64,000 bases of DNA from Bacteroidetes bacterium 4572_112 (GCA_002254285.1 NIUZ01000001.1:701-64700); one strand, 5' to 3'. Counted from the stretch's first letter, positions 6,179-56,192 are shown. The notes: generated by a model from the sequence alone, not told the origin. Translations and numbers: made by a program.

Positions 6179-6196
6179 TTTGTTAATGATAATAAT

Positions 6197-7048: not shown

Positions 7049-7055
7049 GAATGAT

Positions 7056-7928: not shown

Positions 7929-7940
7929 AAATAAATAGAT

Positions 7941-8327: not shown

Positions 8328-8354
8328 TTTATTGAAAAATAAAAACACAAAATT

Positions 8355-8747: not shown

Positions 8748-8825
8748 AACAAATAAAACATTAAACACGTGACTACACCTGCCTTTCGGCAGATAGGTAT
8801 CACCAAATTAATAAATTTTAAACTT

Positions 8826-20960: not shown

Positions 20961-20979
20961 AAATTAAAAATTGTAAATT

Positions 20980-22410
20980 ATGAATAAATTAAAATTAGTT
21001 ATTGCAAGTTTGGCAATGTTTATGTTTATTAGTGTTAGTGCACAGGAAACTGCTGCCACTTCGTCGAAAGAGCTTAATAGATTTGAAAAAAACAGAAGCG
21101 AGTTAGCCGGAAAATATGGTGCTGATAGTGTTAAATGTGTAATGGAACTTAGTTTATACAGAGAGTTCTATAAGCAATGGAAAGCAAGTAAATATACTGA
21201 AGATAATTTAGTGGATCAATCGTTCAAATCTTGGACTTATTGTTTTCACGCGGCTCCTATAGCTAGTAAGAATATGTATATTCATGGCGAAAGAATGGCT
21301 AAGCATTATATAAAGGTTAATAAAGATAATCCTGAAGTTAAACAAGCTTGGGTTGATACTTTAATGATGGTTTATGATCAACGTATTAAATACTACGGTG
21401 ATGATAAGGCAAAGCCAGAAGGTGTATTATTGGGTCGTAAGGCGCAATTCTGCCTAAAGTATGAAAAAGATAGCGCTAATCTTTATTATCCAGCTTTCAG
21501 AAAATCTTTTGAAATGATGGGTAACAACTCTGAGGAGCTTACATTATACTATTACTTTATTGCAAGTATATACTATGTGAAGCAAACAGGAGCTGAAAGA
21601 GATTTAATTCTTGAAAATTATGTCGAAATACAAGATGTTATAGCATATAATATGAATAAGTATGCTGATAATGCTAAAGTATATAGTCGTTACGAGAAGG
21701 TTTCTAATAATATTGAGAAAAATGTAAAGAAATTTGCTACTTGCGAAAAGCTTATTCAATTATACGGACCTAAGCTTGAGAATAATCCTGATGATTTGAA
21801 GTTGGCAAAAAATATTGTAAAATTCTTTGAAGCACGTAAGTGTACTAAGAATGATACCAACGATACTTATTTCAATGCATTGGCAAAGGTACATGCTGCT
21901 GAGCCAACGCCAGAGTCTGCTTTATCAATGGGTAAAATGGCTTTTGAAAGAGAAGAAACAAGTAAAGCTTTAACTTATTTAGAGGAAGCAACAAAAACTC
22001 TTTCTGATTCAAATGCCCTAAAAAAAGGTTCTGCTTATTTACTACTTGCTGAGGTATACCGATCAAAAGGTAAACTTGCGGCATCTCGTTCTGCTGCATA
22101 TAGCGTATTAAAATATAAGCCAAATGAAGGTATGGCATATATCATCATTGGTGACTTATATACTAGCTCTGCTGCTAAATGTACTTCACAAGGTTTGAGA
22201 GTTTCATACTGGGCTGCTTATGATAAATATAAGCAAGCACTTAATCTTTCAAAAGAGGATAAGATAAAAAACATCGCTCGTAAAAAGATGGCTGTTATCA
22301 AGAAAAGTTTCCCTGAAAACCAAGATCTTTTCATGAGAAATCTTAAAGAAGGACAGGCTATAAAAGTAGAATGTTGGATAAACGAAGAAACTAAAGTAAG
22401 AGCAAGATAA
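20980..22410 (+). CDS. Secreted helical-repeat (TPR-like) protein, uncharacterised
   Basis: Signal peptide (SVSAQE). Helix-rich repeat composition with A/L/Y/K periodicity. Starts 19 nt after the upstream stop. Confidence 0.55.
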   Translation: MNKLKLVIASLAMFMFISVSAQETAATSSKELNRFEKNRSELAGKYGADSVKCVMELSLYREFYKQWKASKYTEDNLVDQSFKSWTYCFHAAPIASKNMYIHGERMAKHYIKVNKDNPEVKQAWVDTLMMVYDQRIKYYGDDKAKPEGVLLGRKAQFCLKYEKDSANLYYPAFRKSFEMMGNNSEELTLYYYFIASIYYVKQTGAERDLILENYVEIQDVIAYNMNKYADNAKVYSRYEKVSNNIEKNVKKFATCEKLIQLYGPKLENNPDDLKLAKNIVKFFEARKCTKNDTNDTYFNALAKVHAAEPTPESALSMGKMAFEREETSKALTYLEEATKTLSDSNALKKGSAYLLLAEVYRSKGKLAASRSAAYSVLKYKPNEGMAYIIIGDLYTSSAAKCTSQGLRVSYWAAYDKYKQALNLSKEDKIKNIARKKMAVIKKSFPENQDLFMRNLKEGQAIKVECWINEETKVRAR

Positions 22411-31746: not shown

Positions 31747-33033
31747 TTATAATATTTTGGCCTTGATCTTGTCAATATCCAATAGTTGAATAATAGTAAG
31801 AAGAAAGAATAATAATCCTGGGACTCTATATCTTGATAATGCTCCTAAAACCGGAGTGCCTAATCCAATTATTATAAAGTAAATAATGGAAAATACTAGC
31901 GAAAACCATAATACATTTGAGTCATCAACATCCATACGTGGATATATTATTAGCAATATTATAAATAATAGAATGAACATATTTTCTACGGATGCAAATA
32001 TAGCAAGTAAATTATTTGCCTCCCACATCATTGGGCGAAATAAAGTGTTAATAATTGCTATTGGCGAATTTGATGCTATTGAAATTGAGTTTGCTTCAAA
32101 CATTATTGGTGAAATTATACTCCCCGAATTATCGTTTATTGCCAGTTCGGTTAGTTGTAATTGCTTATCTAATAATGAATTGAATATGCTTATATCCATA
32201 TACTTATCTGATTCGCTAGCAAAGCTAAAAGCAATAAATGCCAACATAAAGTATGGAACAAATGTGCGCTGACTTGGCCTAAAATGAATCCATAAATAGG
32301 CAAGCAATGGTGGTATTATTACAAATAACACAAAAGGCTTTATGCTATAGATTACCAATAGTGAAAGCAGAACAATTATGGCTCTTTTAAAAGGGTGTTT
32401 GCCTTGCAAGGCATAGTTTCCGCAGTTTATCAAAAGACTAATGGCAAACAGTATTAATGATTCCTTTAGTATGCCCGATGTCCAGTAAACTATTGAAGGT
32501 GTGAAAAATATTATTCCGAAAATAAACCATTTTAGCCTCTTCATTTTGGAATAGAAGAATAGGAAAATCCACCACAATCCTGTGAATGATAAAAACACAG
32601 TGAATATCATTATGCCACCATAAGTACCTAAAGTGAATATGCTTAAGAAAGCAATATATCGTATTATAAATCTATTGCTACTAAGGCTGTTAGATTCGCC
32701 AAATTCAAAATTATTTATTTGGATATAATATCTTTGAAGCTCTTTGTCGTTGGCGTTTTTGCCTGTAAGTAGTTTTGTGTAAATTGATATATTACCGTCT
32801 TCCAATGCCGAGAATATTACCTGCGCATCATCATAAAATCTGAATATATCAGCATCTCTTTTTATGGTTTCGCTACGCGAGTATATAAACAACATTGTTA
32901 CAGCAGCAATAAGCTTAACAATGTATGCAATGTTTATCCATAGCTTTGGAATAGCTCTGCTACGAAACATCTTAGTTCTATTTATGATAAAGAAACTAAG
33001 TGCCAAAAAAATTATGCTGATAATATAATTCAT
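31747..33033 (-). CDS. Polytopic membrane protein (10 or more TM segments), possibly a GT-C-like glycosyltransferase or polymerase
   Basis: Hydrophobic throughout with one larger loop (SESDKYMD...NDNSGS). No motif I can name; the functional guess rests on adjacency to hldD. Confidence 0.5.
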   Translation of the reverse strand: MNYIISIIFLALSFFIINRTKMFRSRAIPKLWINIAYIVKLIAAVTMLFIYSRSETIKRDADIFRFYDDAQVIFSALEDGNISIYTKLLTGKNANDKELQRYYIQINNFEFGESNSLSSNRFIIRYIAFLSIFTLGTYGGIMIFTVFLSFTGLWWIFLFFYSKMKRLKWFIFGIIFFTPSIVYWTSGILKESLILFAISLLINCGNYALQGKHPFKRAIIVLLSLLVIYSIKPFVLFVIIPPLLAYLWIHFRPSQRTFVPYFMLAFIAFSFASESDKYMDISIFNSLLDKQLQLTELAINDNSGSIISPIMFEANSISIASNSPIAIINTLFRPMMWEANNLLAIFASVENMFILLFIILLIIYPRMDVDDSNVLWFSLVFSIIYFIIIGLGTPVLGALSRYRVPGLLFFLLTIIQLLDIDKIKAKIL

Positions 33034-37365: not shown

Positions 37366-37824
37366 TTAATAAGAGGCAAGAATTTGAGCAGTATGCTCTT
37401 TGGTCTTTACTTTTTTAAATACTTTTTCAATGACTCCTTCTTCACTAATGATAAAAGTAGTTCTGAAAATGCCATCATATTCTCTACCATATAATTTCTT
37501 TAATCCCCAAGCACCATATAGCTTAAGAATTTCTTTTTCAGTATCAGGAATTAATGGGTAGGGGAAATTGTATTTTTCTTTAAATCTAATTTGTTTCTTT
37601 GTATCGTCGGCACTAAGACCTAGTATTGCAAAGCCTTTCTCGCTAAGCATTTCATAATTATCTCTCAAGTCGCAAGCTTCATTAGTACAGCCTGGGGTCA
37701 TAGCTTTTGGGTATGTAAAAAGTATAAGTTTCTTACCTCTATAATCTTTTAGGCTAATGGTATTGCCCTGTTCATCTACTGTTGTAAAATCTGGTGCAAT
37801 ATCGCCTTCTACTAAATGTGTCAT
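37366..37824 (-). CDS. bcp: Thioredoxin-dependent thiol peroxidase (peroxiredoxin Bcp)
   Basis: LFTYPKAMTPGCT peroxidatic-Cys motif, with the second Cys 5 residues later (TNEAC). Confidence 0.9.
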   Translation of the reverse strand: MTHLVEGDIAPDFTTVDEQGNTISLKDYRGKKLILFTYPKAMTPGCTNEACDLRDNYEMLSEKGFAILGLSADDTKKQIRFKEKYNFPYPLIPDTEKEILKLYGAWGLKKLYGREYDGIFRTTFIISEEGVIEKVFKKVKTKEHTAQILASY

Positions 37825-37988: not shown

Positions 37989-38726
37989 TTATCTAATAAT
38001 AAGCTTTTTAGATGCTAATCTGTTACCGTCAACAATAACATTATAGAAATATACTCCTGATTTCAATTCCGAGATATTAATTTTAGCTCTACTATCATTA
38101 GTAGAAATTTCTTGATTAAAAACTACGCTTCCCAATATATTTACAACTTCAATATTAGCCATTTGAGCATTATTGATTTCATAATCTACAAAGAAAAAAT
38201 CTTTTGCAGGATTAGGATATGCATCTGATATTGTTACTGAGCTTGTAGTTGAACTAATACTTGCATCTAATGCTACATAGTATTTTACAATAAAGTAAGT
38301 AGAATCAGCAGGGTTGTTTTCGTCAAATACTGAATATGCTATTATTGTTGTTCCTTCGTGTCCTTGAGCTGCATAGTCTGTAGTAAATGCTCCAGTTGCA
38401 ATTGATTCTCCAGCAACTATCCAAACTCCAGTTGGCGATAGATTAATGCCTGGAGAAAAACAGCTCCCAAAACAGAAATAATGCAAAGTACTAGGAACTT
38501 CTGATATTGCCATTTGACGAACTTTATACGAATTAGAATCGACGGTATTAGTGTTTTTAGCAGTAAATTCAAGTGTATGAGGGAATTTATTTAAGTCAGA
38601 ACTGAAATATTTTACAGTGTCTCCAAAGTTAACAACATTACTATTATGGTCTGTAATCTCTATTGATTGAGCAAAAAGTGCTGCAAGAAGTAAAGTAAAA
38701 ATTGTGGAAAGGTAAATTCTTTTCAT
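37989..38726 (-). CDS. Small secreted protein with a type-A T9SS C-terminal sorting domain
   Basis: Signal peptide. C-terminus AYPNPAKDFFFVDYE...GVYFYNV...KKLIIR. Confidence 0.65.
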   Translation of the reverse strand: MKRIYLSTIFTLLLAALFAQSIEITDHNSNVVNFGDTVKYFSSDLNKFPHTLEFTAKNTNTVDSNSYKVRQMAISEVPSTLHYFCFGSCFSPGINLSPTGVWIVAGESIATGAFTTDYAAQGHEGTTIIAYSVFDENNPADSTYFIVKYYVALDASISSTTSSVTISDAYPNPAKDFFFVDYEINNAQMANIEVVNILGSVVFNQEISTNDSRAKINISELKSGVYFYNVIVDGNRLASKKLIIR

Positions 38727-38833: not shown

Positions 38834-38871
38834 AAAAAGGTTGCTTCCTAAAAAAAGAAAGCAACCTTTTG
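38834..38871 (-). terminator. Rho-independent terminator after the 670-aa T9SS cargo gene
   Basis: A 12-bp stem, aaaaggttgctt / aagcaacctttt, 23 nt after the stop codon. Confidence 0.65.
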
Positions 38872-38893: not shown

Positions 38894-40906
38894 TTAGTTC
38901 ACTGTCAATTTTTTAGTGATAATGCTGTTATTAATGTTAATTTGAATAACATAAATACCTTGAGCTAATTCAGAGATATTTACTTTTTGGTTTTGAGAAC
39001 CAGCATTAAGAGTTCCAAGATCAGCGTTAATTACTTCTTGGCCTAAGTTATTAAGTACAGAATAAGTAACATTAGCTTTTTCAGCTAATTCAATATCAAG
39101 GTTGAATTGATCAACAGCAGGGTTAGGATAAACGCTAACAGTGTTGTTGTTCTCAGGAGTTGCTATGCTAACATCAGTAGAGTTATAAACTCTAATGTCG
39201 TCAAAGTAAAGGTTGTTACCATAAGCAGAAGTTCCTAGGAATTCAATAATAACATCAGCAGTATTGTTATAAGCGCTTAAGTCGATATCAGCAGAAGCCC
39301 ATTGATCAATAGCTGGGAAGAAGTTACCATCACCTTTTGGAGGAGCAGTAGCTAAATCAGCACCTTGCTTAGTCCAAACTGTAGTGAATGTAGCTCCACA
39401 ATCAGTACTAACACGGATATCTAACTTATCATTTTCAGTTGAATACTGAGCATAAGCATAGTTGAATTTAAGACCATAACCAGTATTGCTACTGAAGTCC
39501 ATTTTATGGAACATCATGCTAACAGTTTTGTTAGGCTGTATTCCATAATAGTTATAAATATAACTAGTTGCAGATGCACCAAAAGCACCAAGCTCTTGAG
39601 TTGTACCTACTTCTGTTTTATTAACAGTAAAAGCACTTCCTGAACCTTCACCGCTCATGATAGCATTGTTAATTTCGCCTTCAAAAGCAGCATAGCTTTC
39701 AAAATCTTCATTGTATACTGTTCCTATAGTTGCAGATGGCATATGATTAAATATACCAGTAGAAGTTGTATTATTTGATGAAGGAATATCTATTTTAGTA
39801 GCAACACCGTCAAAGTTTACATTTAAAACAATTTCGTTATTCGATGCAGTAATATTTTCAGCAGGGAATGTGAATGTAGCTTCAGCACCTGGAGCAAGAG
39901 CAGCAGTAATTGTTTGAACTACATCAGCACCTCCATTAAGAGAATACTTAACATTAAATGTGTCAGCAGTAATAGTTGTTGAGTTGTTCTTAACTTTTAC
40001 AGAAGGAGTAATTGTAGCATCACAAATACCAGGAACAGTAGTCATATTCTCAACACTTAGGTCGCAAATATCAACTCCTGGAGGAGTTACAAATGTCAAA
40101 ACAGCTTCGTTACCAGTAACGATTTCTTGTTGAGTTTCTGTTAAGAAAACTACTATTTCAAGATCAGATAATTCTACAGGAATACTATTGATGTCAGCAG
40201 GTGCAGTATAAGAATATGTTTTAGAATAGAAAGCTGTACCAGTAGTAATAGCTATATCTTCACCCCATTGACCAGTAATTAGGTCGCGCAACATATGCAT
40301 ATGGTTGTAATTACCATTAGGTAACATTTGGTCAGGATTTGTTGAGCCACCAGTTTGTGGTCCTTCAAGGTTATTTTGAAGAAGAGCAACATTTAACTTT
40401 AAGTTAGCTGGAGCAGTAGTAGCATCTGTAATATACATTTCAACTAAAATATCAACAACTCTAGTTTGAAGATTTACACTTGCAGTAGCAGCGATATTTA
40501 CATAAGAAGCTTGTCCTATTGTAGTAGTAGTTGAAGCAGCCCAGTCACCTCTACCTTGAGCAGTTGTAGAACCACTAAATGCGTGACGATTAATTGTTCC
40601 TGAAGGATAGCCAGTAAGACCAGTTTGACCAGCAATAGCATCACCCCAAGGTGTTCTGAAATCAGGCTCACCTGCTTGTGGAGTTGCATAACTTCCTTGG
40701 TGAATATTAATAGCAAAGAAATCGCCAACATTAGCAGCAGCAATCTGATTGCTTACCTTATGTCCATCAGGGCAATATGTGCAGTGAATTCCTGTGAATT
40801 CCTCAAGAACAGCATTCTTATTCTCAGGAGTTGTACTTACAATAGTTTGAGCAAACAGAGTAATGCTTGCAAAAGCCATTGCTAAAATAAAAGTAATTTT
40901 TTTCAT
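38894..40906 (-). CDS. T9SS cargo with an N-terminal Omp28-like/thioredoxin-like CxxC domain, Ig-like middle domains and a type-A T9SS C-terminal domain
   Basis: Signal peptide. EEFTGIHCTYCPDGH parallels EDYTGHLCTNCPSAH of the lipoprotein at 43400. C-terminus VYPNPAVDQFNL...GIYVIQI...KKLTVN. Confidence 0.6.
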   Translation of the reverse strand: MKKITFILAMAFASITLFAQTIVSTTPENKNAVLEEFTGIHCTYCPDGHKVSNQIAAANVGDFFAINIHQGSYATPQAGEPDFRTPWGDAIAGQTGLTGYPSGTINRHAFSGSTTAQGRGDWAASTTTTIGQASYVNIAATASVNLQTRVVDILVEMYITDATTAPANLKLNVALLQNNLEGPQTGGSTNPDQMLPNGNYNHMHMLRDLITGQWGEDIAITTGTAFYSKTYSYTAPADINSIPVELSDLEIVVFLTETQQEIVTGNEAVLTFVTPPGVDICDLSVENMTTVPGICDATITPSVKVKNNSTTITADTFNVKYSLNGGADVVQTITAALAPGAEATFTFPAENITASNNEIVLNVNFDGVATKIDIPSSNNTTSTGIFNHMPSATIGTVYNEDFESYAAFEGEINNAIMSGEGSGSAFTVNKTEVGTTQELGAFGASATSYIYNYYGIQPNKTVSMMFHKMDFSSNTGYGLKFNYAYAQYSTENDKLDIRVSTDCGATFTTVWTKQGADLATAPPKGDGNFFPAIDQWASADIDLSAYNNTADVIIEFLGTSAYGNNLYFDDIRVYNSTDVSIATPENNNTVSVYPNPAVDQFNLDIELAEKANVTYSVLNNLGQEVINADLGTLNAGSQNQKVNISELAQGIYVIQININNSIITKKLTVN

Positions 40907-41147
40907 GTGTGTAATTTTTGAGTTTAATTAATAATGTTTGGTCGGCTAAAATAGTAAAAAAAGTGATAGATGATAAAATATGTTAATAAACTTGTTTTAA
41001 AAATAACAAATAAATTGCATCTAATTAGTGGCATAAAAAATGGGGAATATATTTATATAAAAATATGTCAACATTTTTCTTATTTTCGCAGTTGAATTTT
41101 AGTTCATTATACTATATAGGCATATAAATTACTAAATACACACACAC

Positions 41148-41660
41148 ATGAAAAAATTACAATTAATGGCAATGCTGTTTGTCACAGTTTTGCTTTTGTC
41201 GTTCACAAGCGGTAATAAAGCAAGCCTTCCTAAGGTTGATGTTAAAGGCATTGATGGAAAAATCGTTAATACATCTACATTTTCAAATGATGGTAATCCT
41301 ATGATTATTAGTTTTTGGGCTACTTGGTGCAAGCCTTGTGTTACCGAATTAAATACTATTGCTGAGGTTTACGAAGATTGGCAAGACGAAACAGGAGTTA
41401 AGCTTATTGCTATTTCTGTTGACAATTCTAGAACATCAGGCGGAGTTCTTCCAATGGTGAACGGTAAAGGTTGGGAGTATGAAGTTTTTCTTGATGAAAA
41501 CGGTGATTTTAAAAGAGCAATGGGTGTAAATATTGTACCTCATACTTTCCTTATTAATGGTAAAGGCGAAATTGTATGGCAACATACATCTTTTACTGAA
41601 GGTTCGGAACTAGAGCTTATTGAGCTTGTTCGCAAACTGAAAAGAGGAGAAGAAATATAA
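41148..41660 (+). CDS. TlpA-like periplasmic thiol:disulfide oxidoreductase (redoxin/AhpC-TSA fold)
   Basis: Signal peptide. FWATWCKPC active site. V.LIAISVD and VP.TFLI..G.IV motifs. Confidence 0.85.
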   Translation: MKKLQLMAMLFVTVLLLSFTSGNKASLPKVDVKGIDGKIVNTSTFSNDGNPMIISFWATWCKPCVTELNTIAEVYEDWQDETGVKLIAISVDNSRTSGGVLPMVNGKGWEYEVFLDENGDFKRAMGVNIVPHTFLINGKGEIVWQHTSFTEGSELELIELVRKLKRGEEI

Positions 41661-41730
41661 ATCCATAAAGGAGTTTTAATTCAAAATTAAAGCTCTTTAT
41701 TTTTATTAAGAATTTATTAAATTTAGAAGA

Positions 41731-43380
41731 ATGAAAAGAAATTTACTTTTTTTTGTTTTTATAATATTTGCTTTTGGAAACATTTCTTACGCACAAGTAT
41801 TAGGTGGTGGCGAAGTACATGGAAGCTTCCAAACGGATGCACAATATTATAATAAAGACTCGGTAATTGGAGCTGACGAAATTCCTGAAAAAATGGCTAT
41901 GAATGCATTTTTTGAAATGCGTTATACCAACAAAAAATTTGAAGCAGGAATGCGTTACGAACTATTTATGCCTCAGATGCAGGGTTATGATCCTCGATGG
42001 AAAGGTAATGGTTTTGGAAATAGATACCTAAGATATAATGGTGATAAAGTGGATGTTACAGTTGGTAACTTTTATGAGCAATTTGGGTCAGGAATGGTTC
42101 TTCGCTCTTATCAAGAATGGAATTTAGGCTTCGATAATGCCTTTGATGGTATTAGAGTAAAGTATAAAATGAAAGCATTAACCATAACAGGTCTTGTTGC
42201 TAAGCAAAGGTTTTATTGGGACCTTGGACCAGGTTTGGTACGTGGTATCGATGCTCAATTATCGGTAAATGATATGTTTTCGAAACTAGCCGATACTAAA
42301 ACTCGTGTGTTTGTTGGTGGTAGTTTTGTGAGTCGTTATCAAGTGGATGCAGATCCTTTATTCTGCCTTCCTGAGAATGTTGGCGCTTATGCAGGACGCT
42401 TTCAAGTTTACCATGGTGGTTTTAACTTTAAGTTTGAAGCTGGTGGCAAAATCAATGATCCTAATGCTACAAATAATATGATTTATAAGAATGGTAATGC
42501 TGTAATTGCCGAAATAGGATATTCTACAAAAGGACTAGGATTTACATTGCAAGCAGAGCGTTCTGATAATATGGACTATCGCTCAAATAGAGCATCTACT
42601 GGTTTTGATTTGCCTGTGGGATACATTCCTGCAATGAGTCGTCAGCATGCTTATAGCCTTGCTGCTATGTATCCATATGCATCACAAGCAAACGGACAAA
42701 TGGGGTTGCAAGCAACCTTATTTTATAAGCTTAAAAAGAAAACTTGGTATGGTGGTAAATACGGTACTAGTGTGGATTTAAACTACTCTGTTTCGCATGC
42801 CATTGACAAGCAATCGCCTAGTGATACAACTGCTATCGGTGTTGCTGGTACTTATGGTTATACTTCTGATTTCTTTAAAATAGGTGACGAAAAGTATTAT
42901 CACGATTTTAATATTAAACTTACTCGTAAGATAAATAGAAAATGGAAAGTAAGCCTTATGTATATGAATGTATTTTATAATATGCTTATTAACGAAGGTC
43001 ATAATGCTCCTAGTGTAAAAGCTAATATTTATATTGCTGATATATGGTGGAAATTTAAACCATATAATTCACTTCATTTAGAAGCTCAGCTGTTAACCAC
43101 AGAGCAAGATGATGGTAATTGGTCATCAGGAATGCTGGAGTATAATCGTAAAGGCTTTTTTGTGGCAGGAATATTACTTTATAATCATGGTATTAGCAAT
43201 AGTCATGGAACAACTGAGGCCGCTTTATACCCTTCATTAACCACTGGTTATACTCATGGTGCTACTCGTATTTCAATGAGCTATGGTAAGCAGCGCGAGG
43301 GAATTCTTTGTGTTGGTGGAGTTTGTAGAGCAGTGCCAGCTTCCAATGGTTTAAGCCTTACTATTAATAGTAGTTTTTAA
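41731..43380 (+). CDS. Outer-membrane beta-barrel protein (my recollection: DUF6029-like family)
   Basis: Signal peptide (ISYAQV). Alternating beta-strand pattern. The terminal ...LSLTINSSF has a C-terminal Phe, the OMP beta-signal. Confidence 0.6.
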   Translation: MKRNLLFFVFIIFAFGNISYAQVLGGGEVHGSFQTDAQYYNKDSVIGADEIPEKMAMNAFFEMRYTNKKFEAGMRYELFMPQMQGYDPRWKGNGFGNRYLRYNGDKVDVTVGNFYEQFGSGMVLRSYQEWNLGFDNAFDGIRVKYKMKALTITGLVAKQRFYWDLGPGLVRGIDAQLSVNDMFSKLADTKTRVFVGGSFVSRYQVDADPLFCLPENVGAYAGRFQVYHGGFNFKFEAGGKINDPNATNNMIYKNGNAVIAEIGYSTKGLGFTLQAERSDNMDYRSNRASTGFDLPVGYIPAMSRQHAYSLAAMYPYASQANGQMGLQATLFYKLKKKTWYGGKYGTSVDLNYSVSHAIDKQSPSDTTAIGVAGTYGYTSDFFKIGDEKYYHDFNIKLTRKINRKWKVSLMYMNVFYNMLINEGHNAPSVKANIYIADIWWKFKPYNSLHLEAQLLTTEQDDGNWSSGMLEYNRKGFFVAGILLYNHGISNSHGTTEAALYPSLTTGYTHGATRISMSYGKQREGILCVGGVCRAVPASNGLSLTINSSF

Positions 43381-43399
43381 TGTTTAAGAATTAATTTTT

Positions 43400-44260
43400 A
43401 TGAAAAAGATATTATTATTTTTTGCTTTATTGTCAGCAGCTTTGGTTATTACCACTTCTTGCGATAAAGTGGATCCATCATGTAATGTTAATACAGGTGG
43501 TGGTTCTAAATCAGATACTATTCGCAAATTATTATTTGAAGATTATACAGGGCACTTATGTACTAATTGCCCTTCAGCACATGCTATATTAGATGATTTG
43601 CATAAAATATATGGTGACAGAATGGTAACTGTTGCTATACATACGGGCTTCTTCTCTATGCAAGCAGCTCCTCCTTACGATGCAGATTATAAATCTGTTG
43701 ATGGGGAAGATTTAGCATTGTTTTTTGGTGGAAATACGGCGCCGCTTCCTAAAGGGGTGGTAAATAGAGCTAAAGTAAATGGCTCATACCTTATTGAGCG
43801 TGCTGAGTTTTCTACGGAGGTTTCTAAAGTGCTTACGGACGAAAAGCCAGACTTATATTTAGAGGTGAAACCAACTTATACTGGTGGTAATACTTTTGAT
43901 GTAGAGGTGAAAATTACAGCTATGAAAGATATGCCTGCAGGTAAATATAATCTATCGGTATTGATTACTGAGAGTGATATTGTTTCGGCACAAAAGAATG
44001 TTGACCCTAATATTAATAATGGACAAGAAATGCTTGACTATCACCATAATCATGTATTGCGTGCCACGGTTAATACTACTTGGGGTGAAGAGTTTGCTGC
44101 TTCAATAAGCAATGGTCAAACGTTTACAAAAACGTATACAAATGTGCCTATAAATGCAGGGTGGGATACTGACAATATTAGTATTGTTGCCTTTGCATAC
44201 TATGCTGATGGCGCAAAAGAGAAAGAAGTTATTCAAGCACAAGTTGAAGAGCTTAAGTAG
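43400..44260 (+). CDS. Omp28-related outer-membrane lipoprotein with a CxxC motif
   Basis: Lipobox ITTSC. LFEDYTGHLCTNCP thioredoxin-like motif. Starts 19 nt after the barrel gene. The family name is from memory of Omp28-related proteins. Confidence 0.6.
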   Translation: MKKILLFFALLSAALVITTSCDKVDPSCNVNTGGGSKSDTIRKLLFEDYTGHLCTNCPSAHAILDDLHKIYGDRMVTVAIHTGFFSMQAAPPYDADYKSVDGEDLALFFGGNTAPLPKGVVNRAKVNGSYLIERAEFSTEVSKVLTDEKPDLYLEVKPTYTGGNTFDVEVKITAMKDMPAGKYNLSVLITESDIVSAQKNVDPNINNGQEMLDYHHNHVLRATVNTTWGEEFAASISNGQTFTKTYTNVPINAGWDTDNISIVAFAYYADGAKEKEVIQAQVEELK

Positions 44261-44349: not shown

Positions 44350-44479
44350 TAACTAAGGTAGCTAATAATTATAGACTATACTAAACTTAATAATACTAAG
44401 GATTACAATAAAGCCACATTTGTGAAAGCAGATGTGGCTTTATTTATTGTATATTTGTTTCTCTAGAAAATAACGCATA

Positions 44480-48839: not shown

Positions 48840-49709
48840 TTAATAAGTATTCGTCATATCTTCATCAATAGCAATTATAAAGTCGGCAGACATTTGAATT
48901 TTATCATTTATGGTATCTATGTTCTCTTGCGATACAGAAGTGATGGTGGCAATTTTAAGCTCAGGATTTGCTTTCTTTAAATATAGAATAATGCTCTCGT
49001 GATTATCCGAATGGTATGATCCATTAAAATGGTAAAAGTGTTTTCCTTGCTCCCAGTTTGCTAATATAAAATGAGCCATTGTAGCATCTTTAAGAGCTTG
49101 TGCTTTCACAATATTTGTCATGCGAGCACTTTTATGTCCTCCCATTGCAGCTATCATTCCGGTATAGCAATCAGCATCTTCAAAATAATGAATAGGTAGT
49201 GGTGCTATATATCGTTTAGCTTCATCACTTAGTGAGTCTAGCGCTGTTAAACTACCTTTATTTACAATAGCAGCATATCTACGTGGTACGTTTGTAGCTA
49301 TCATTGGAATATTATTTTCTTTCGAAAATCGTAGTATTGGTGCGTAATCAGTTTCGTCATTTGGCCATAAACGAGCTTGGTCTTTAAAGTACTTATACTT
49401 TACCGCTCCCGACAAATACTCGTCTATTATTAGCTGTTGGTCTGCCTCATACATTTCAGCTCCCATTACAAAGCTATCGCCATGTTTTGCATATAATGCC
49501 TTGGCTACCTCTAGCTCTAGCCAGTGCGAAATTGCATTATTATGTAACTCACCAAAGAAAACAATATCAGCATCAGCTATTTTGTTAATTACTTTGTCAA
49601 ATTTCTGTACTTTTCCCTTATTGTTAAATATGTTGTAAGGCTTTAAATCTGAGCTCATTGCTAAAATAAATAATGCTGTGATACTCAGTAATAGTAATTT
49701 AATTTTCAT
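48840..49709 (-). CDS. ChaN-like (haem-binding uptake, Tiki superfamily) protein
   Basis: Signal peptide. DIVFFGELHNNAISHWLELEV and the MGAEMYEADQQ pattern are typical of the ChaN/Cofac_haem_bdg family. Confidence 0.65.
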   Translation of the reverse strand: MKIKLLLLSITALFILAMSSDLKPYNIFNNKGKVQKFDKVINKIADADIVFFGELHNNAISHWLELEVAKALYAKHGDSFVMGAEMYEADQQLIIDEYLSGAVKYKYFKDQARLWPNDETDYAPILRFSKENNIPMIATNVPRRYAAIVNKGSLTALDSLSDEAKRYIAPLPIHYFEDADCYTGMIAAMGGHKSARMTNIVKAQALKDATMAHFILANWEQGKHFYHFNGSYHSDNHESIILYLKKANPELKIATITSVSQENIDTINDKIQMSADFIIAIDEDMTNTY

Positions 49710-50083: not shown

Positions 50084-50210
50084 GGTATTATACCAAATTA
50101 ATATCAAAACACGCCATATAAATCGTTTATATTTCCCTATTACTGCGTTAAAAATTATTTCCATAGCTATACTTCGACATGCTCAGTACAGGCTTTTATG
50201 CAAATAATTT
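50084..50210. repeat. Composite repeat element, copy B (related to 30468-30605)
   Basis: See copy A. The 38-nt and 33-nt blocks are separated here by 52 nt. The element overlaps the stop codon (50209-50211) of the type-B T9SS cargo gene by 2 nt. Confidence 0.8.
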
Positions 50211-52755
50211 AGTTTCTAAGAATAGTAACAGTGCCTTTCATTTCGGTATCCTTACCATCAGCAAGGTATAAGTTCCAATAATAAACGCCATCTGTTAGAC
50301 TTCCACCACTCCAATCATTCTGATAGTTTGTGCTTTCGTAAACTTTCTTACCCCATCTATTATAAATAATAAGAGTAGAGTTAGGGAATGAAGAGTAAAA
50401 CTCTGGAGCACCATCACCAGTAAGCATTATCTTAAATGCATCATTTAGTCCGTCGCCATTAGGTGTAATAATATTTGGTACATCAACTTCACAATTATTT
50501 GCTGCTACCTTAATCTTATCTTTACAACCACCAACGTTTAAAGCTATTTCGTAATCTCCTGATTCTTTTTCCATAAAGAAGAAGAAATCATTTGCGGAAA
50601 CAGTATTGCCATCTTGAGTCCAAGCATATGAATAAGTATGTCCTGATGGAGGAATTGGTCCTCTAAATCTAATTCTTTGGTAAGTACATACTTCTTGATC
50701 TCCAGCAGTCCATTCAGCATTTGGCATAGGTGAGTCTTCTGCAGCCATATATGGCATACCTTCAATTATTTTATCTTGGTCAATTATATTTACAGTACCA
50801 CTACTAGTACATTTTACATTAGTACTTATTGTAGGATGACTAACCGATACAGAATATACTCCTGATTCAACTGCATGAAGTGTTTTATCTGAACTACCAT
50901 CACTCCACTCAAATACCATATCTGGATCAATAAATGGATAAACCTTATCAACATCAATAATATATGGTGCTTGTGAAGCCCAAATACATGTATCACTAAT
51001 GTTCTCTGGAGGAGTAAGTGATGCTACAGTAAAAGTATCAATATCAATACATCTAGTATTATTACCACCATCAACATATATAGAATAAATTCCTGTGTTT
51101 TGGAAAGTATGAGTTTGTGATGTTCCTAAGGAAGTACCATTATAATCAGTCCAATTATATAATTGCCCTTGTCCTGCATCAAAAGTTACACTGCCTGGTG
51201 CGCAATATGCAGTATCGGCAATAGTTCCATTAATTTCAGGTTGGTAAACAACTTCAATTTCTATAACATCAACACCTGGGCATGCCATAGTTGTTGTGCC
51301 GTCATTGGTTTTAATTGTAAGGTAGTTAGTGCCCGGTGTTAGGTTTGTTGAGTTTATTATAATACTATCTTGACCAAGTGGTGTGCCTGTTGGAACGCCA
51401 TTCATAGACCAAACATAGTTTACCGTAGTAGTATCAGCATCAGCTCTTACTACAATTTCTTCACCTTGGCATAATAATGTATCAGTTCCTATGTCAACAA
51501 GCATACCTCTTACTACTAAACAGTATGAGAATGTTTGTACTCCATTATAACCACAAGCTTCATCTTGTACTTTTACAGTAAAACATTTAGGAATTGTACT
51601 TACATCAGCAGCTGTTGGCATCCACTCAAAACTAGCGTATGCGCTATCAGTATGATCATTAATAACAGTAAATGAGGCACCTGGGATTCCATTATCCCAT
51701 GATATACTAAATTTTTCAGGATGACCAATATTACCTGGCGTAAATGTATCGGCATCATATCCATTAATATGGAATTTTATAGGGTCAATACTTCTACATT
51801 TTTCCAAATAATATAAAGTATCATTGGGGTCGTAAGTTGCAGTTAAGTTGGTGTCCATTCCACTAAGAACAGGCATTGTGTTATTACAAGCAACTACTTT
51901 CAATTGTATATCTCTATAAACGGAACCTATATTGGTCATTACGCCATTTATTTCTCTCCATTCGTCAACTCTAATACCAGTTACAGTATTTAATATTGCA
52001 GAAGGAGTAAAAGTAACGTCACCTGTTATAGGGTTAAGCATGATAGGAGTACTTGAATTTAAGAAATTTAGGTAAGTATAACCAAAATTATACATTACAG
52101 ATGTTAAATTAGGTGCAGGTCCGCTAGTATATGGAGCATAAAAAGAATATGATAATGAATCACCATCAGGGTCTTGTGCTCCGTGGTTAAATGTAAACGC
52201 TTGGTTAATACAAGTAACTGCAATAGGTTTGTTTGAAAATGTTGGTGAGCTATTACATGGTGCATCAAGGTTATTAAGTAAAGCCGGAATGAACCAATTA
52301 CCTGATGTCATTAAAGTTGTAATAGGATTACGAGCTCCACTTGTCCAATACATCGACCACTCATTACAAGGAGGCATTGTTACCGTAGCTTGATATACTA
52401 CTTCCTTAATGCCATATGGGTGTCCATTATTTGGAGAGTTTCCACCATTAAAACCACAAGAAGTTGGCACTGCCGTACAACCAGGGGTTATTTCTTGACC
52501 AGTACCAGCAATTTGTGGTAAGCCAATATCAAAATTGAAAATAGGATTACTAGCGCAAGAAAAATGAATTGTTGCTGGGTCTGGAGGTACTATTCCACTA
52601 CAATCTTTATAGAAAGATAATGTGATTAAGTAGGTGCTTCCTCCTAAACAAGTATAAGTTAAATCTGCACCAGCAAAGTGTGATGCTTCTGCAGACTTAT
52701 TAATACCCATTAATAGGAAAATGCTAATGCTCAAATAAACTAATAATTTCTTCAT
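50209..52755 (-). CDS. Large secreted protein with a type-B T9SS (gliding-motility-associated, CHU_C-type) C-terminal domain
   Basis: Signal peptide. Cys-rich Ig-like modules. C-terminus VPNIITPNGDGLNDAFKI...IYNRWGKKVYES..Y.NDW.G....DGVYYW is the type-B CTD signature. Confidence 0.8.
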   Translation of the reverse strand: MKKLLVYLSISIFLLMGINKSAEASHFAGADLTYTCLGGSTYLITLSFYKDCSGIVPPDPATIHFSCASNPIFNFDIGLPQIAGTGQEITPGCTAVPTSCGFNGGNSPNNGHPYGIKEVVYQATVTMPPCNEWSMYWTSGARNPITTLMTSGNWFIPALLNNLDAPCNSSPTFSNKPIAVTCINQAFTFNHGAQDPDGDSLSYSFYAPYTSGPAPNLTSVMYNFGYTYLNFLNSSTPIMLNPITGDVTFTPSAILNTVTGIRVDEWREINGVMTNIGSVYRDIQLKVVACNNTMPVLSGMDTNLTATYDPNDTLYYLEKCRSIDPIKFHINGYDADTFTPGNIGHPEKFSISWDNGIPGASFTVINDHTDSAYASFEWMPTAADVSTIPKCFTVKVQDEACGYNGVQTFSYCLVVRGMLVDIGTDTLLCQGEEIVVRADADTTTVNYVWSMNGVPTGTPLGQDSIIINSTNLTPGTNYLTIKTNDGTTTMACPGVDVIEIEVVYQPEINGTIADTAYCAPGSVTFDAGQGQLYNWTDYNGTSLGTSQTHTFQNTGIYSIYVDGGNNTRCIDIDTFTVASLTPPENISDTCIWASQAPYIIDVDKVYPFIDPDMVFEWSDGSSDKTLHAVESGVYSVSVSHPTISTNVKCTSSGTVNIIDQDKIIEGMPYMAAEDSPMPNAEWTAGDQEVCTYQRIRFRGPIPPSGHTYSYAWTQDGNTVSANDFFFFMEKESGDYEIALNVGGCKDKIKVAANNCEVDVPNIITPNGDGLNDAFKIMLTGDGAPEFYSSFPNSTLIIYNRWGKKVYESTNYQNDWSGGSLTDGVYYWNLYLADGKDTEMKGTVTILRN

Positions 52756-54380: not shown

Positions 54381-56192
54381 ATGCAAAAAATACTCTTAAA
54401 CTACCTTCCTCCTTCAGATATTTATACGCCATCAGCGGCTTTATCTATTCTTAAAAGCTTTATGCTTGAGCATGACTTTGATACTGATATTAAGTATTGG
54501 AATTTGCTATTTAAACCAGTATTGCCATTACAAGATAGTGACGAAATTGAGGAAGCAATAATCCCATTTGTATCAATTTTAAATGACCAGTTTACTAATG
54601 ATGAGGGCAATGATAAAGCAGCACAATTACTACATTCACTATTGTCGGAAAGTGAGCAGCATGATTTAATTTATTATAAGAAGCTGCTTATCAGCACAAA
54701 GAAAGATATTTTCAGAATTATAAATAAGGAATTGTCGCAGCTCAACTTCTCAGATATTTTGCTCTTTGGAGTGAGCTCTAAGTTTCATCAGTGGATTCCA
54801 GGAATGATTCTGTGTCAGGAGGTAAAAAAAATATCGCCAAACACGGCTACCGTTGTGGGTGGTTTTGGCAGCGTTCAATCTGCTGTGGAAGCCATGAAAA
54901 TGAACCCCGATTTTGATTTTGCCACTTGGGGCGAAGGCGAATATCCTTTGCTTGAGCTTAGTAAGCAACTCAAAGCTTCGGAGCAAGATTTCAATGAAGT
55001 ACCACGCTTGATATTTCGTGAGAATGGTAAAATACAGATTTCTACCACAAATAGAAGTGAGTATCTTGATATGCAGGATTATATGATTCCTAATTATGAT
55101 GATTATTTTGAGAATTATCCTGTTACAGAAGAGAAATATAAGATAGTAATTCCCATAAATTCGAGTAGGGCCTGCTCATGGAATAAGTGCAAATTCTGCG
55201 ACTATAACAGAGGTTATAAATACCGTGCTCGTACTGCCGAATGTATTATTAGTGAGGTGGAGCAGATAGCTCGAAAGCACAAAAGTGCTTGTTTCTCTTT
55301 TGTGGATAACGATATTTATGTAAATCCCGAGCATTTTGAACATCTGCTGGATTTAATGATAGAATCCATAAATAAGCATAATTTTGATTATGAATTTTGG
55401 GCAGAGATGATTCCCAATGAAAAACTTACTGCTCCAACTCTTAAAAAAATGCAGCAAGCTGGCTTTAGCCAAATTTTTGATACCCTACTTGAGAAAATGG
55501 CAAAGAGCAACACTTTTTCTAGCAATATTCTGTTTTTGAAGTTCTCTTTAAAAAACGAGATTTACCCTTTGGTAAATATTATTAAAGGTGTGCTTGGCGA
55601 AACTGCTGGTGATGTAATTGAGAGTATGGCGAATCTGTATTTTCTTAGATTTTTCTATAATAAGGAAGAGTATTCGCTTTATCATGAGTATGTTACTTTG
55701 GTGGTTTCAAATATGACTAAATATTATACTATGCTGTCGGCAGAGCAGCGAGCAGAGTATAATACTAATAAGCTTACGGATATGCTACCAAGGCATTTCT
55801 CAGAAGGCGATTCAAGATTTAGCCTTTTTCGTTGGCAAAAACAGAAAGTGGATAATCATAAACAATGGGCAGCAATACAGCTTAAGGAAGAGTATTATGC
55901 TGAAAATATCCATACTTATAAAATTAATGAGCAAGAAGCCATTATTGAGTTTACAGAATTTGTAAATGATAAGCATACTGCAACTTATAAGCTGGATAAG
56001 GAAACTGATTGGCAGATTTTGAAATTAGCAAATGAGCAGATTATGAGCTTTGAGGATATGCTTTCGCAAATGCAAACTCTTAAACCTGATTTTAATTCTG
56101 AGGATTTGAAAAAACATCTTAGCCGATTAAAAGAGATTCACCTACTGTATTGTGATAAGAATTTCTCTGGGATTATTTCGGTGATTGGTTGA
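54381..56192 (+). CDS. B12-binding-domain radical SAM protein resembling the RiPP-maturation radical SAM family
   Basis: N-terminus LLNYLPPSDIYTPSAALSILKSFMLEHDFDTDIKYWNLLF resembles the family N-terminus (MPF....PSLGLSLLKA.L...G....V.Y.NL.F). Cys cluster SRACSWNKCKFCDYN (nt 55173-55199). NIIKGVLGET (the family's N.I.GFPGET motif). Confidence 0.7.
   Translation: MQKILLNYLPPSDIYTPSAALSILKSFMLEHDFDTDIKYWNLLFKPVLPLQDSDEIEEAIIPFVSILNDQFTNDEGNDKAAQLLHSLLSESEQHDLIYYKKLLISTKKDIFRIINKELSQLNFSDILLFGVSSKFHQWIPGMILCQEVKKISPNTATVVGGFGSVQSAVEAMKMNPDFDFATWGEGEYPLLELSKQLKASEQDFNEVPRLIFRENGKIQISTTNRSEYLDMQDYMIPNYDDYFENYPVTEEKYKIVIPINSSRACSWNKCKFCDYNRGYKYRARTAECIISEVEQIARKHKSACFSFVDNDIYVNPEHFEHLLDLMIESINKHNFDYEFWAEMIPNEKLTAPTLKKMQQAGFSQIFDTLLEKMAKSNTFSSNILFLKFSLKNEIYPLVNIIKGVLGETAGDVIESMANLYFLRFFYNKEEYSLYHEYVTLVVSNMTKYYTMLSAEQRAEYNTNKLTDMLPRHFSEGDSRFSLFRWQKQKVDNHKQWAAIQLKEEYYAENIHTYKINEQEAIIEFTEFVNDKHTATYKLDKETDWQILKLANEQIMSFEDMLSQMQTLKPDFNSEDLKKHLSRLKEIHLLYCDKNFSGIISVIG

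Follow-up and report, generated by a model that had tools for sequence, protein, structure and literature searches.

A putative operon encoding a TlpA-like reductase, a DUF6029 barrel and an Omp28 lipoprotein: a candidate thiol-disulfide oxidoreductase unit at the outer membrane

Results

In a window of 64,000 nucleotides from Bacteroidetes bacterium 4572_112 (the whole stretch of DNA that was analysed), we find a TlpA-like thioredoxin-fold gene, a DUF6029 barrel gene and an Omp28 lipoprotein gene in series, divergent from a gene for a T9SS-secreted Omp28 paralog (Table 1). We hypothesize, with a probability of about one half, that the operon builds an outer-membrane-associated thiol-disulfide oxidoreductase unit.

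Table 1. Features of the locus (positions counted from the first nucleotide of the window)
Feature	Position	Strand	Family or remark
Small T9SS cargo, 245 aa	37989-38726	-	Por_Secre_tail
Terminator-like hairpin, 15 pairs	38835-38870	-	directly 3' of 670-aa T9SS gene
T9SS-secreted Omp28 paralog, 670 aa	38894-40906	-	PF11551, Por_Secre_tail
AT-rich divergent intergenic region, 241 nt	40907-41147		presumed promoters for both arms
TlpA/ResA-like exported thiol-disulfide oxidoreductase, 170 aa	41148-41660	+	Pfam AhpC-TSA, Redoxin
DUF6029 outer-membrane beta-barrel, 549 aa	41731-43380	+	PF19494
Omp28-family lipoprotein, 286 aa	43400-44260	+	PF11551
Strong terminator-like hairpin, 17 pairs and T-run	44407-44444	+	would close the three-gene operon

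The sequence-only reading of this DNA had called four open reading frames, and all four are present at the positions it gave, the barrel ending in INSSF with a C-terminal Phe. Its spacing of 19 nt between the barrel and lipoprotein genes is exact, and the intergenic region that it put at 240 nt measures 241 nt. The motifs it quoted are likewise as described, namely WCKPC (Cys61/64) in the TlpA-like protein, LFEDYTGHLCTNCP (Cys54/57) in the lipoprotein and EEFTGIHCTYCP (Cys42/45) in the 670-residue protein, and the family names it gave are correct, the matches being to Redoxin/AhpC-TSA, to DUF6029, to Omp28 (PF11551) for both proteins, and to Por_Secre_tail on the 670-residue protein. The short gaps between the plus-strand genes (70 nt from TlpA-like to barrel and 19 nt from barrel to lipoprotein) and the terminator 3' of the third gene suggest that the three form one operon; no terminator-like site was found between them on the same strand. 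Because the other hairpin lies directly 3' of the 670-residue T9SS gene, that gene is probably monocistronic. An Rfam search of the divergent intergenic region found no family.

The synteny on which the earlier reading depended extends well outside this genome. The TlpA-like, DUF6029 and Omp28 genes adjoin one another in 18 of 18 loci reached from the barrel (15 genome loci and three further barrel look-ups) and in 3 of 3 reached from Omp28, which include Prevotella and a rearranged Flavobacterium locus. The trio occurs in Bacteroidales, Prevotella, Flavobacterium, Saprospiraceae and Chlorobiota, and the TlpA-like gene adjoins the barrel gene in every locus examined. The three genes are inseparable across phyla. 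The genes that flank them show no conservation across the loci compared. A literature search found no paper on the three-gene module, the constituent families being already known.

The first gene encodes a predicted TlpA/ResA/CcmG-type exported reductase, with a thioredoxin fold, a WCxxC motif and an export signal. The protein has an N-terminal hydrophobic signal or anchor with no lipobox, its sole cysteines are those of WC61KPC64 (41328-41339), and it scores above cut-off on Pfam AhpC-TSA (69.7 bits) and Redoxin (58.4 bits). Its best NCBIfam matches, ResA (74.1 bits, cut-off 170), StoA (71, cut-off 210), DsbE (51.6, cut-off 123) and TlpA (36.1, cut-off 230), all fall below the equivalog cut-offs, so that we regard it as a superfamily member outside any named orthologous group. 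In the PDB it matches 2m72, an 'uncharacterized thioredoxin-like protein' (E 7e-54), followed by ResA, StoA and CcmG (E 1e-14 to 1e-7). An exported WCxPC thioredoxin-fold reductase whose gene adjoins that of a presumed client is also the pattern of the TlpA, ResA, CcmG and StoA pathways: TlpA keeps the copper chaperone ScoI reduced, and ResA with apocytochrome c is another pair of TlpA-type reductase and dedicated client. One presumed client here resembles ScoI in having a thioredoxin fold and a Cys pair of its own. The module may be viewed as a variant of such extracytoplasmic reductive pathways. Both presumed clients here belong to the outer membrane, one a barrel and the other a lipoprotein, and no TlpA-type pathway is known to have such clients.

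The lipoprotein is of the HBP35/Omp28 type, with a predicted thioredoxin fold that carries the family-invariant C(U)xxC. It matches PF11551 with 91.7 bits (cut-off 34.9) and NF033782 with 146.1 bits, just under the cut-off of 150. A lipobox (LVITTSC21, followed by DKVDP) precedes a thioredoxin-fold domain (residues ~42-145) and an Ig-like sandwich (~150-284), both seen in the AF2 model (pLDDT 93.2). The thioredoxin-like fold that the earlier reading had expected is thus found in the model and also by Foldseek and by profile search of the PDB. The modelled elements are strand 44-50, helix 57-74, strand 75-81, helix 100-109, strand 118-121 and helix 134-144, so placed that the active-site motif C54TNC57P (43559-43570) follows strand 44-50 at the N-terminal end of helix 57-74, and the invariant P117 takes the cis-Pro position before strand 118-121. 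The other invariant residues are T50, C54, C57, P58, R123, Q198 and R221, and H81, H216 and H218 are nearly invariant. The CxNC of the lipoprotein is not a classical reductase dipeptide, which counts against a reductase reading.

The best Foldseek match of the model is HBP35 (5y1a; E 1.4e-11, TM 0.66/0.60, 16% sequence identity in the structural alignment), followed by Omp28 (2r2c). Searched against the PDB, the Omp28-family profile finds 2r2c with E 9.3e-37, HBP35 with E 9e-11 over residues 25-271, and thioredoxins at about 1e-3. Omp28 (PG2173) of Porphyromonas gingivalis is a lipoprotein of the same family as both window proteins, and the Ig-like domain of our lipoprotein matches it by phmmer (E 5.4e-12 over 111-280) and by Foldseek (E 6.6e-06); the 2r2c crystal structure is of the Ig-like domain alone (corresponding to residues 100-280), which leaves the thioredoxin half of Omp28 a predicted one. 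Surface orientation is common for Bacteroidota lipoproteins. A lipobox is present in 172 of the 225 short family members, and the family's lipoproteins conserve C-D-K-[IV]-[ED]-x-P after it, which merely resembles the published lipoprotein export signal K-(D/E)2 (PMC5080379); the lipoprotein may face the periplasm or the surface.

The conservation of the CxxC, which the earlier reading had made a point to be checked, proved complete: the motif is found in all 254 Omp28 homologues of two sets (110/110 and 144/144), and thus is not a chance occurrence. None of the three outcomes that the earlier reading gave as refuting it came about. In a large marine clade of the family (NCBIfam NF045500), selenocysteine replaces the first Cys (UxxC). 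Among metagenomic DNA-pattern matches, 108 of 127 have an in-frame TGA at the first-Cys position inside an Omp28-profile open reading frame, and one such relative scores 583.8 bits on NF045500, 'Omp28-related selenoprotein'. A hairpin 15 nt 3' of the UGA shows compensatory pairs (C-G/U-A and G-C/A-U) and has a GUU loop in 78 of 90 distinct sequences. Replacement by Sec is typical of catalytic redox sites, and its presence here marks the first Cys as a redox nucleophile. We consider the swap independent support for redox chemistry in Omp28, the activity itself being predicted. The two window proteins share with the clade the fold family and the active-site register (in the clade, VEDFTGLN-U-PYCP), and the Sec-Omp28 genes too lie beside TlpA-like genes (WCxPC redoxins) and distant DUF6029-like barrel genes. 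They differ in that the clade comes from marine metagenomes and has C-terminal extensions and longer barrels (590-780 aa), whereas the window proteins use Cys (codons TGY) and score 50.7 and 20.4 bits on NF045500, below its cut-off of 200.

The earlier reading held that Omp28-type lipoproteins have no defined biochemical role. This stands for Omp28 itself, for which no role was found in the literature searched, but not for its wider kin: HBP35 of P. gingivalis, related by profile (E 9e-11) and fold, is a precedent, and NCBIfam curates an 'Omp28-related selenoprotein'. HBP35 has CxxC-dependent, insulin-reducing thioredoxin activity, binds hemin and is required for growth under hemin limitation (PMC2907840). 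With the lipoprotein it shares a two-domain core of a thioredoxin-like CxxCP domain and an Ig-like sandwich. With the 670-residue protein it shares T9SS export, a type A CTD, a thioredoxin-like CxxC module and an Ig-like domain; the latter protein, however, has extra Ig-like and choice-of-anchor J domains, and phmmer gives no match between it and 5y1a at E ≤ 1. In the literature consulted, HBP35 is not linked to any barrel or TlpA-like gene.

HBP35 binds hemin, and H81, Q198, H216, H218 and R221 are common to it and the lipoprotein family in the profile alignment, so that these residues may serve to bind a ligand and not to catalyse. Omp28 would then be an HBP35-like binder of haem or of a thiophilic metal and would sit as a lid on the DUF6029 channel, much like other pairs of barrel and surface lipoprotein in Bacteroidota, and the TlpA-like protein would do no more than keep the ligand-binding cysteines of Omp28 reduced, as TlpA does for ScoI. 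The hemin phenotype of HBP35, the closest solved relative, favours this, as do the large, plug-less barrel and a ChaN-like haem-binding gene 4.6 kb away (48840-49709). The ChaN neighbour, however, is kept in the closest relatives only, the HxH motif is missing in some lipoproteins (loci L021 and L015), the other loci examined have no TonB box, plug or linked haem-uptake genes, and Sec at the first Cys speaks for catalysis. On balance we consider ligand capture and uptake unlikely as the function of the module.

The barrel matches PF19494 over its full length (residues 1-549 on profile positions 1-538 of 538; 564.3 bits, cut-off 27, E 3.6e-169). It has a signal peptide and no plug or TonB-box domain. 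The AF2 model (pLDDT 87.4) is all-beta with about 24 strands, as counted by DSSP on that model; it finds only generic barrel matches among PDB structures (TM ≤ 0.46), and sequence and profile searches of the PDB found no relative. We also observed a Cys pair that the earlier reading does not mention, C527-x4-C532-R (CVGGVC, 43309-43326), both cysteines being invariant in the 41 sequences aligned. The distant marine homologues of the barrel, those encoded beside Sec-Omp28 genes, keep the hairpin as CxNGxCR, and nothing else in the barrel is as well conserved as this pair, even at profile E ~1e-10. The turn lengths given by DSSP, rather than coordinates, place it putatively in the last extracellular loop.

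A large outer-membrane barrel and a lipoprotein are also encoded side by side in the cases of LptD-LptE, Slam with surface lipoproteins, BtuB-BtuG and SusC-SusD, although the DUF6029 barrel has no sequence relationship to these pairs. LptD depends on correct disulfides, and its maturation is Dsb-dependent and involves the lipoprotein LptE. By analogy, the product of the operon could be the barrel itself, as a porin or channel, with the TlpA-like protein and the lipoprotein forming or proof-reading its C-x4-C disulfide. The conservation of that pair and the strict co-inheritance of the three genes agree with such a role in barrel biogenesis. However, the Omp28 family has 18,970 50%-identity representatives at E ≤ 1e-3, and it contains many paralogs, whether single, in tandem, T9SS-secreted or Sec-containing, with no adjoining barrel, which argues for a wider catalytic role. 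A disulfide within a hairpin of five residues, moreover, seldom requires an isomerase of its own; we judge this explanation improbable. That DUF6029 is a Wzi-like polysaccharide-export porin with accessory redox genes is very improbable, since, although Wzi-barrel-like proteins near OPX genes resemble DUF6029 by HHpred (PMC9603273) and AlgE is among the many generic structure matches of the barrel, OPX, Wzx/Wzy or glycosyltransferase genes are conserved neighbours in none of about 21 independent loci, Wzi is absent from the top 50 PDB structural matches, the barrel profile has no PDB sequence relative, and this reading gives no reason why the barrel is always partnered by two thioredoxin-fold proteins.

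The divergent 670-residue protein consists of a signal peptide, an Omp28-type module (thioredoxin-like plus Ig), further Ig-like and 'choice-of-anchor J' domains and a type A T9SS CTD. Its active-site motif is C42TYC45P (40772-40783), and it retains the Omp28 motifs INR, PQ and YNHMHMLR. The N-terminal part matches PF11551 with 74.1 bits (cut-off 34.9) and NF033782 with 92.2 bits (under the cut-off of 150), and the CTD matches PF18962 Por_Secre_tail with 51.7 bits (cut-off 27) and TIGR04183 with 47.6 bits; the score on NF038128 is 32.7 bits. By BLASTP it is 26% identical to the lipoprotein over 217 aa (E 6e-13), and on this alignment the two are true paralogs; together with the two Pfam matches, this supports the earlier description of it as a surface-exposed paralog. 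Its orthologs are divergent from the trio in three loci (L003, L005, L006), and other T9SS thioredoxin-type proteins lie beside the trio in L021, L023 and L019, the partner in Flavobacterium being a classical WCGPC redoxin with a CTD. T9SS thioredoxin-fold partners thus recur beside the module, with one non-orthologous replacement.

The 245-residue T9SS protein (Por_Secre_tail, 60.9 bits, cut-off 27) has just two cysteines, FC85-x3-C89 (CFGSC, 38460-38474), a pair that went unremarked in the sequence-only reading. Homologues, all with the pair, lie beside the module in L001, L003, L005, L006, L011, L021 and Flavobacterium L019. We regard the protein as an accessory recurrent neighbour.

Discussion

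In the oxidoreductase unit that we propose, a CcdA/DsbD-type membrane protein whose gene lies elsewhere would recharge the TlpA-like protein with reducing power from the cytoplasm; a search for CcdA or DsbD genes within the window found none, which counts against the scheme. On the periplasmic side, the TlpA-like protein would then pass this reducing power on to cysteines in a complex of barrel and lipoprotein. The acceptor would be the Omp28 CxxC, either directly or via the Cys hairpin of the barrel, and the Omp28 active site would in turn serve as an outer-membrane reductase, turned towards the periplasm or the surface. The divergent T9SS paralog would carry this catalytic module to the cell surface, like HBP35 in P. 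gingivalis, and the small T9SS protein with its Cys pair is a candidate client. The terminal substrate could be an oxidant, a ligand bound through thiols (haem, for example), or the disulfides of proteins that are secreted or lie on the surface. We infer the role of the TlpA-like protein as donor, that of the barrel as conduit or anchor and any surface orientation of the lipoprotein.

The module does not fit a porin-cytochrome conduit of the MtrCAB type: a Cys inventory of the five proteins found no CxxCH haem motif in any of them, and single Cys pairs only. MtrCAB (outer membrane), which likewise combines a surface lipoprotein with a large barrel, and DsbD (inner membrane) are conceptual analogues only, as membrane-embedded electron relays with no homology to the module. 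Tentatively, and at low probability, the module may relay thiol-disulfide exchange from one side of the outer membrane to the other, as a counterpart there of DsbD. The periplasmic TlpA-like reductase would reduce the C-x4-C hairpin of the barrel, a wholly conjectural relay element, and the hairpin would then reduce the C(U)xxC of surface-exposed Omp28, of T9SS-anchored paralogs, or of both.

Our analysis suggests that the module is a previously undescribed route by which thiol redox chemistry reaches the outer membrane or the cell surface. If the relay is true, reducing power from the cytoplasm would be used outside the cell to reduce disulfides or detoxify oxidants.

Gene layout and operon structure

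The sequence-only reading had described four ORFs grouped around an outer-membrane barrel, and we found all four in the sequence exactly as described in length, spacing and motifs. HMM matches confirm the family names that it had given: Redoxin/AhpC-TSA, DUF6029 (564 bits for the barrel), Omp28 and the type A T9SS C-terminal domain (CTD). PF11551 (Omp28) matches the lipoprotein and, over its N-terminal third, the 670-aa protein, which also carries the type A CTD; the two proteins are indeed paralogs (26% identity, E 6e-13). A terminator hairpin of 17 bp lies after the third plus-strand gene and no terminator was found on the plus strand between the three, from which we conclude that the trio forms one operon; the 670-aa gene has a terminator of its own, and so does the gene next to it. 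No Rfam family was found in the region, including the intergenic spacer, and a sigma-70 promoter scan, whose model is unsuited to Bacteroidota, gave fewer sites than in shuffled sequence.

Features of the module and of its surroundings in the window
Feature	Coordinates	Strand	Remarks
T9SS-type Omp28 paralog, 670 aa	38894-40906	-	Type A CTD
Divergent spacer, 241 nt	between 670-aa gene and TlpA-like gene		AT-rich
TlpA-like protein, 170 aa	41148-41660	+	WC61KPC64
Barrel, 549 aa	41731-43380	+	C-terminal Phe
Lipoprotein, 286 aa	43400-44260	+	Lipobox Cys21, C54TNC57P; 19 nt after barrel gene
T9SS cargo, 245 aa	37989-38726	-	Two cysteines only, conserved FC-x3-C
Bcp-type peroxiredoxin, cytoplasmic	37366-37824	-	AhpC-TSA 123.8 bits; without signal peptide
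ChaN/Tiki-type 'haem-binding uptake' protein	48840-49709	-	PF04187, 192 bits
Compact anaerobe-type cluster	5738-9164	+
Large T9SS cargo	5-3607	+
Large T9SS cargo	10061-12334	-
Large T9SS cargo	50209-52755	-
Patatin-like phospholipase, 735 aa	45326-47533	+	Final Phe
Sizeable ORFs without Pfam match	19683-22410	+
Sizeable ORF without Pfam match	54381-56192	+
Sizeable ORF without Pfam match	31747-33033	-

The Bcp peroxiredoxin gene sits between recA and the T9SS genes; its missing signal peptide, and synteny only in the closest relative (L001), rule it out as part of the module. Elsewhere in the window, the compact cluster encodes DUF134, two small Nitro_FeMo-Co (NifX/NifB-like) proteins, a PNPOx-like protein and two CbiA/ParA-like P-loop proteins into which 4Fe-4S ferredoxin segments are inserted. 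Of the three further large T9SS cargos, two bear a type A Por_Secre_tail, one of these also having BNR/PKD domains, and the third bears a type B CHU_C signal; the source organism is a T9SS-rich, Bacteroidales-like anaerobe whose closest loci are Bacteroidales MAGs. The patatin-like phospholipase has a long C-terminal extension with no Pfam annotation, possibly an outer-membrane barrel. ORFs of 425, 476, 603 and 428 aa had no match in Pfam at E <= 1e-6.

Conservation of the trio

A search seeded with the barrel recovered 15 genome loci (41-93% identity) from Bacteroidales, Prolixibacteraceae, Salibacteraceae and Chlorobiota. The sequence-only reading had treated the three plus-strand genes as a unit, and this unit is syntenic outside the genome in which it was first seen: the order TlpA-like, DUF6029, Omp28 is present in all 15 loci, and each gene retains its Cys motif in every one of them; the genes that flank the trio are not conserved. 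The trio is also present in three of three further barrel look-ups and in three of three Omp28 look-ups (Prevotella, Flavobacterium sp. Sd200 and a 365-kb metagenome contig), the gene order being rearranged only in Flavobacterium.

A thioredoxin fold in the Omp28 lipoprotein

An AlphaFold2 model of the lipoprotein, built from 48 homologues, is confident (pLDDT 93.2) and agrees with the thioredoxin-like character originally proposed for the CxxC region: residues ~42-145 are modelled with thioredoxin topology. Strand 44-50 is followed by the CxxC, from which helix 57-74 extends, and then by strand 75-81 and helix 100-109; the invariant Pro117 then occupies the cis-proline position ahead of strand 118-121, followed by helix 134-144. 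Residues ~150-284 are modelled as a beta sandwich. The top structural match in the PDB is the P. gingivalis T9SS protein HBP35 (5y1a; E 1.4e-11, TM 0.66/0.60) and the second-best is the Omp28 domain structure 2r2c; compared with the PDB, the family profile likewise matches 2r2c (9e-37) and HBP35 (9e-11 over residues 25-271), as well as genuine thioredoxins (E ~1e-3). 2r2c spans the sandwich only, a possible reason why the thioredoxin half of Omp28 has been overlooked. HBP35 is a surface protein exported by the T9SS, and the recombinant protein shows CxxC-dependent insulin reduction (PMC2907840).

The CxxC, which had been noted as a thioredoxin-like motif, is conserved in the family: it is in register in 110 of 110 homologues from the first search and in 144 of 144 further 50%-identity representatives, mostly as CxNC. 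The Omp28 profile matches 18,970 such representatives at E <= 1e-3. Invariant across the family are T50, C54, C57, P58, P117, R123, Q198 and R221, with E47, H81, E191, Y214, H216 and H218 nearly so. The mature N-terminus is also conserved, as C-D-K-[IV]-[ED]-x-P, which is similar to the export signal K-(D/E)2 published for Bacteroidota but does not match it (PMC5080379). In one proteomic study Omp28 was found in P. gingivalis vesicles only after H2O2 treatment (PMC12937337), which hints, if weakly, at some connection with oxidative stress. Among the top representatives of the family (P0231-P0243, P0237, P0242, P0245, P0360) are proteins of ~510-550 aa that contain Omp28 twice in tandem, with two profile matches, and forms of ~1,000 aa; in P0110 Omp28 is fused with a Pfam Thioredoxin domain. 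We dropped P. clara 00502, an 'Omp28-related' T9SS trypsin recruiter, as a functional precedent: its authors model WD40 and Ig-like domains, and their paper makes no mention of thioredoxin (PMC9477747).

Selenocysteine at the active site

Because NCBIfam contains an 'Omp28-related selenoprotein' (NF045500), we scanned metagenome contigs with an active-site DNA pattern in which TGA replaces the first Cys codon. The strict UxNC pattern had no match in these contigs; a relaxed pattern gave at least 120 loci. Among the matches listed, read-through of the TGA lies in Omp28-profile ORFs in 108 of 127 cases, the typical motif being VEDFTGLN-U-PYCPSASF, and one such ORF scores 583.8 bits on NF045500 (cut-off 200). 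Where selenocysteine takes the N-terminal place in the UxxC motif of a thioredoxin fold, it marks a redox nucleophile.

Pair counting showed that, among the matches listed, 78 of 90 distinct sequences can form a hairpin of five pairs, closed by a GUU loop and beginning 15 nt downstream of the UGA. Its pairs covary, with compensatory C-G/U-A and G-C/A-U changes, as would be expected of a bacterial SECIS element. When the whole 63-nt segment after the UGA was folded, none of the z-scores was significant (mean -0.25); the SECIS-like signal is a short local hairpin, visible by pair counting only. Conserved sequences of the hairpin include GCGAG-UUU-CGC and GCAAG-UUU-UGC.

The selenocysteine loci were located by DNA motif alone. 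Among the matches listed, 36 have a distant DUF6029-profile match and 30 a WCxPC redoxin, and of the 32 loci that exceed 8 kb and have a family match, 18 carry these genes next to the selenoprotein gene. The T9SS type of the 670-aa protein has a selenocysteine counterpart in one contig, L109 (EEFTGTG-U-IGCP plus CTD). UxxC relatives often occur two or three per contig (L026, L028, L029, L040, L074, L079 and ~100 others among the matches listed), and many end in thrombospondin-type-3-like Asp-rich repeats or in T9SS CTDs.

The DUF6029 barrel and the TlpA-like protein

DUF6029 comprises more than 5,600 90%-identity clusters. The barrel was modelled (pLDDT 87.4) as all-beta between residue 28 and the C-terminal Phe, and it lacks a plug domain; the DSSP elements of the model suggest ~24 transmembrane strands. 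No PDB sequence relative was found, by single sequence or by profile, and its structural similarity to PDB entries is of a generic kind (TonB-dependent transporters, ushers, OmpM1, AlgE; TM <= 0.46). The best-conserved feature of the family is a C-x4-C-R hairpin near the C-terminus, in which Cys527 and Cys532 are invariant (residues 527-532, window 43309-43326, within GILCVGGVCRxVPASNG). It is kept, as GGLFCSNG[VI]CRxIPPFNDG, in marine barrels (L026-L144) that match the DUF6029 profile at E ~1e-10 only. From the alternation of short and long turns in the model, the hairpin probably sits in the last extracellular loop.

The N-terminus of the 170-aa protein is hydrophobic and lacks a lipobox, and the protein has no cysteines other than the WCKPC pair. 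It resembles ResA, StoA, DsbE/CcmG and TlpA but falls below all of their equivalog cut-offs. No CcdA/DsbD gene was found within the window. The closest solved relative of the 170-aa protein is the NMR structure 2m72 (E 7e-54, 143 residues aligned), a near-ortholog deposited only as an 'uncharacterized thioredoxin-like protein', in which the motif is NCKPC rather than WCKPC. 2m72 may be PG_2175 of P. gingivalis, where PG2173 is Omp28 and PG_2174 an uncharacterised vesicle protein; if so, the trio would be present in P. gingivalis too, which we regard as a lead and not as a result.

Secreted partners of the module

Orthologs of the 670-aa protein are encoded divergently from the trio in three comparison loci (L003, L005, L006), and two others (L021, L023) have another Omp28-derived T9SS protein with the motif EEFTNASC[SG]PC. 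At the same place Flavobacterium sp. Sd200 (L019, 3581-5104, plus strand) encodes a 507-aa protein in which a classical WCGPC redoxin is fused to a T9SS CTD, which looks like a non-orthologous replacement; locus L024 encodes an Omp28-weak protein that lacks CxxC. The recurrence of secreted thioredoxin-fold partners, some of them non-orthologous, supports a functional link of the trio to the cell surface. Homologues of the 245-aa T9SS protein adjoin the module in eight loci, including L019, and we consider this protein a candidate client.

Discussion

The identities of the components, the fold, the conservation of the active site and its replacement by selenocysteine, the operon structure and the phylum-wide linkage are established for the module. 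We hypothesize, with a probability of about 0.5, that the TlpA-like protein would act as a periplasmic electron donor to the cysteines of a barrel-Omp28 complex, that Omp28 would be a reductase at the outer membrane, and that the T9SS paralogs would carry the same chemistry to the surface.

The module could instead serve to capture and take up haem or a metal, with the TlpA-like protein merely keeping ligand thiols reduced, a role for which TlpA-ScoI is a precedent; on our analysis this is unlikely. Recombinant HBP35 also binds hemin (PMC2907840), and the ChaN/Tiki-type gene lies 4.6 kb downstream of the operon, a position that it keeps in L001 and L002, the closest relatives, and in no others. 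A thiol relay that would work across the outer membrane in the manner of DsbD is likewise unlikely. Redoxin and Omp28 genes adjoin every barrel examined and some Omp28 paralogs have no barrel alongside; that the trio is a dedicated barrel-biogenesis cassette strikes us as distinctly improbable. Neither the gene context nor the structural matches in our analysis favour the proposal that DUF6029 is possibly a Wzi-like polysaccharide porin (PMC9603273), which is very improbable.

The component families have entries in Pfam, NCBIfam and the PDB, and homologues are already labelled 'thiol-disulfide isomerase/thioredoxin' in some JGI annotations. In the literature searched on Omp28, DUF6029 and PG2173-PG2175 we found no description of the three-gene module, of the barrel Cys hairpin or of a connection that joins Omp28 and HBP35 with a donor of the TlpA type. 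Extracytoplasmic reductive pathways (DsbD/CcdA to TlpA, ResA or CcmG) are known to end in the periplasm, and none is known by which thiol reducing power reaches the outer membrane or the cell surface in a diderm; we class the module as a variant of such pathways. The module is abundant, occurs in gut, oral, environmental and marine bacteria of the FCB group, and includes selenoprotein versions and a homologue of measured thioredoxin activity (HBP35). The proposal provides a concrete, genetically tractable hypothesis for three orphans, Omp28, DUF6029 and PDB 2m72, and even conservative readings would give a large DUF barrel family a function. The module may account for surface thiol chemistry in anaerobic Bacteroidota, such as oxidative-stress defence, haem handling or the reduction of disulfide-rich host proteins.
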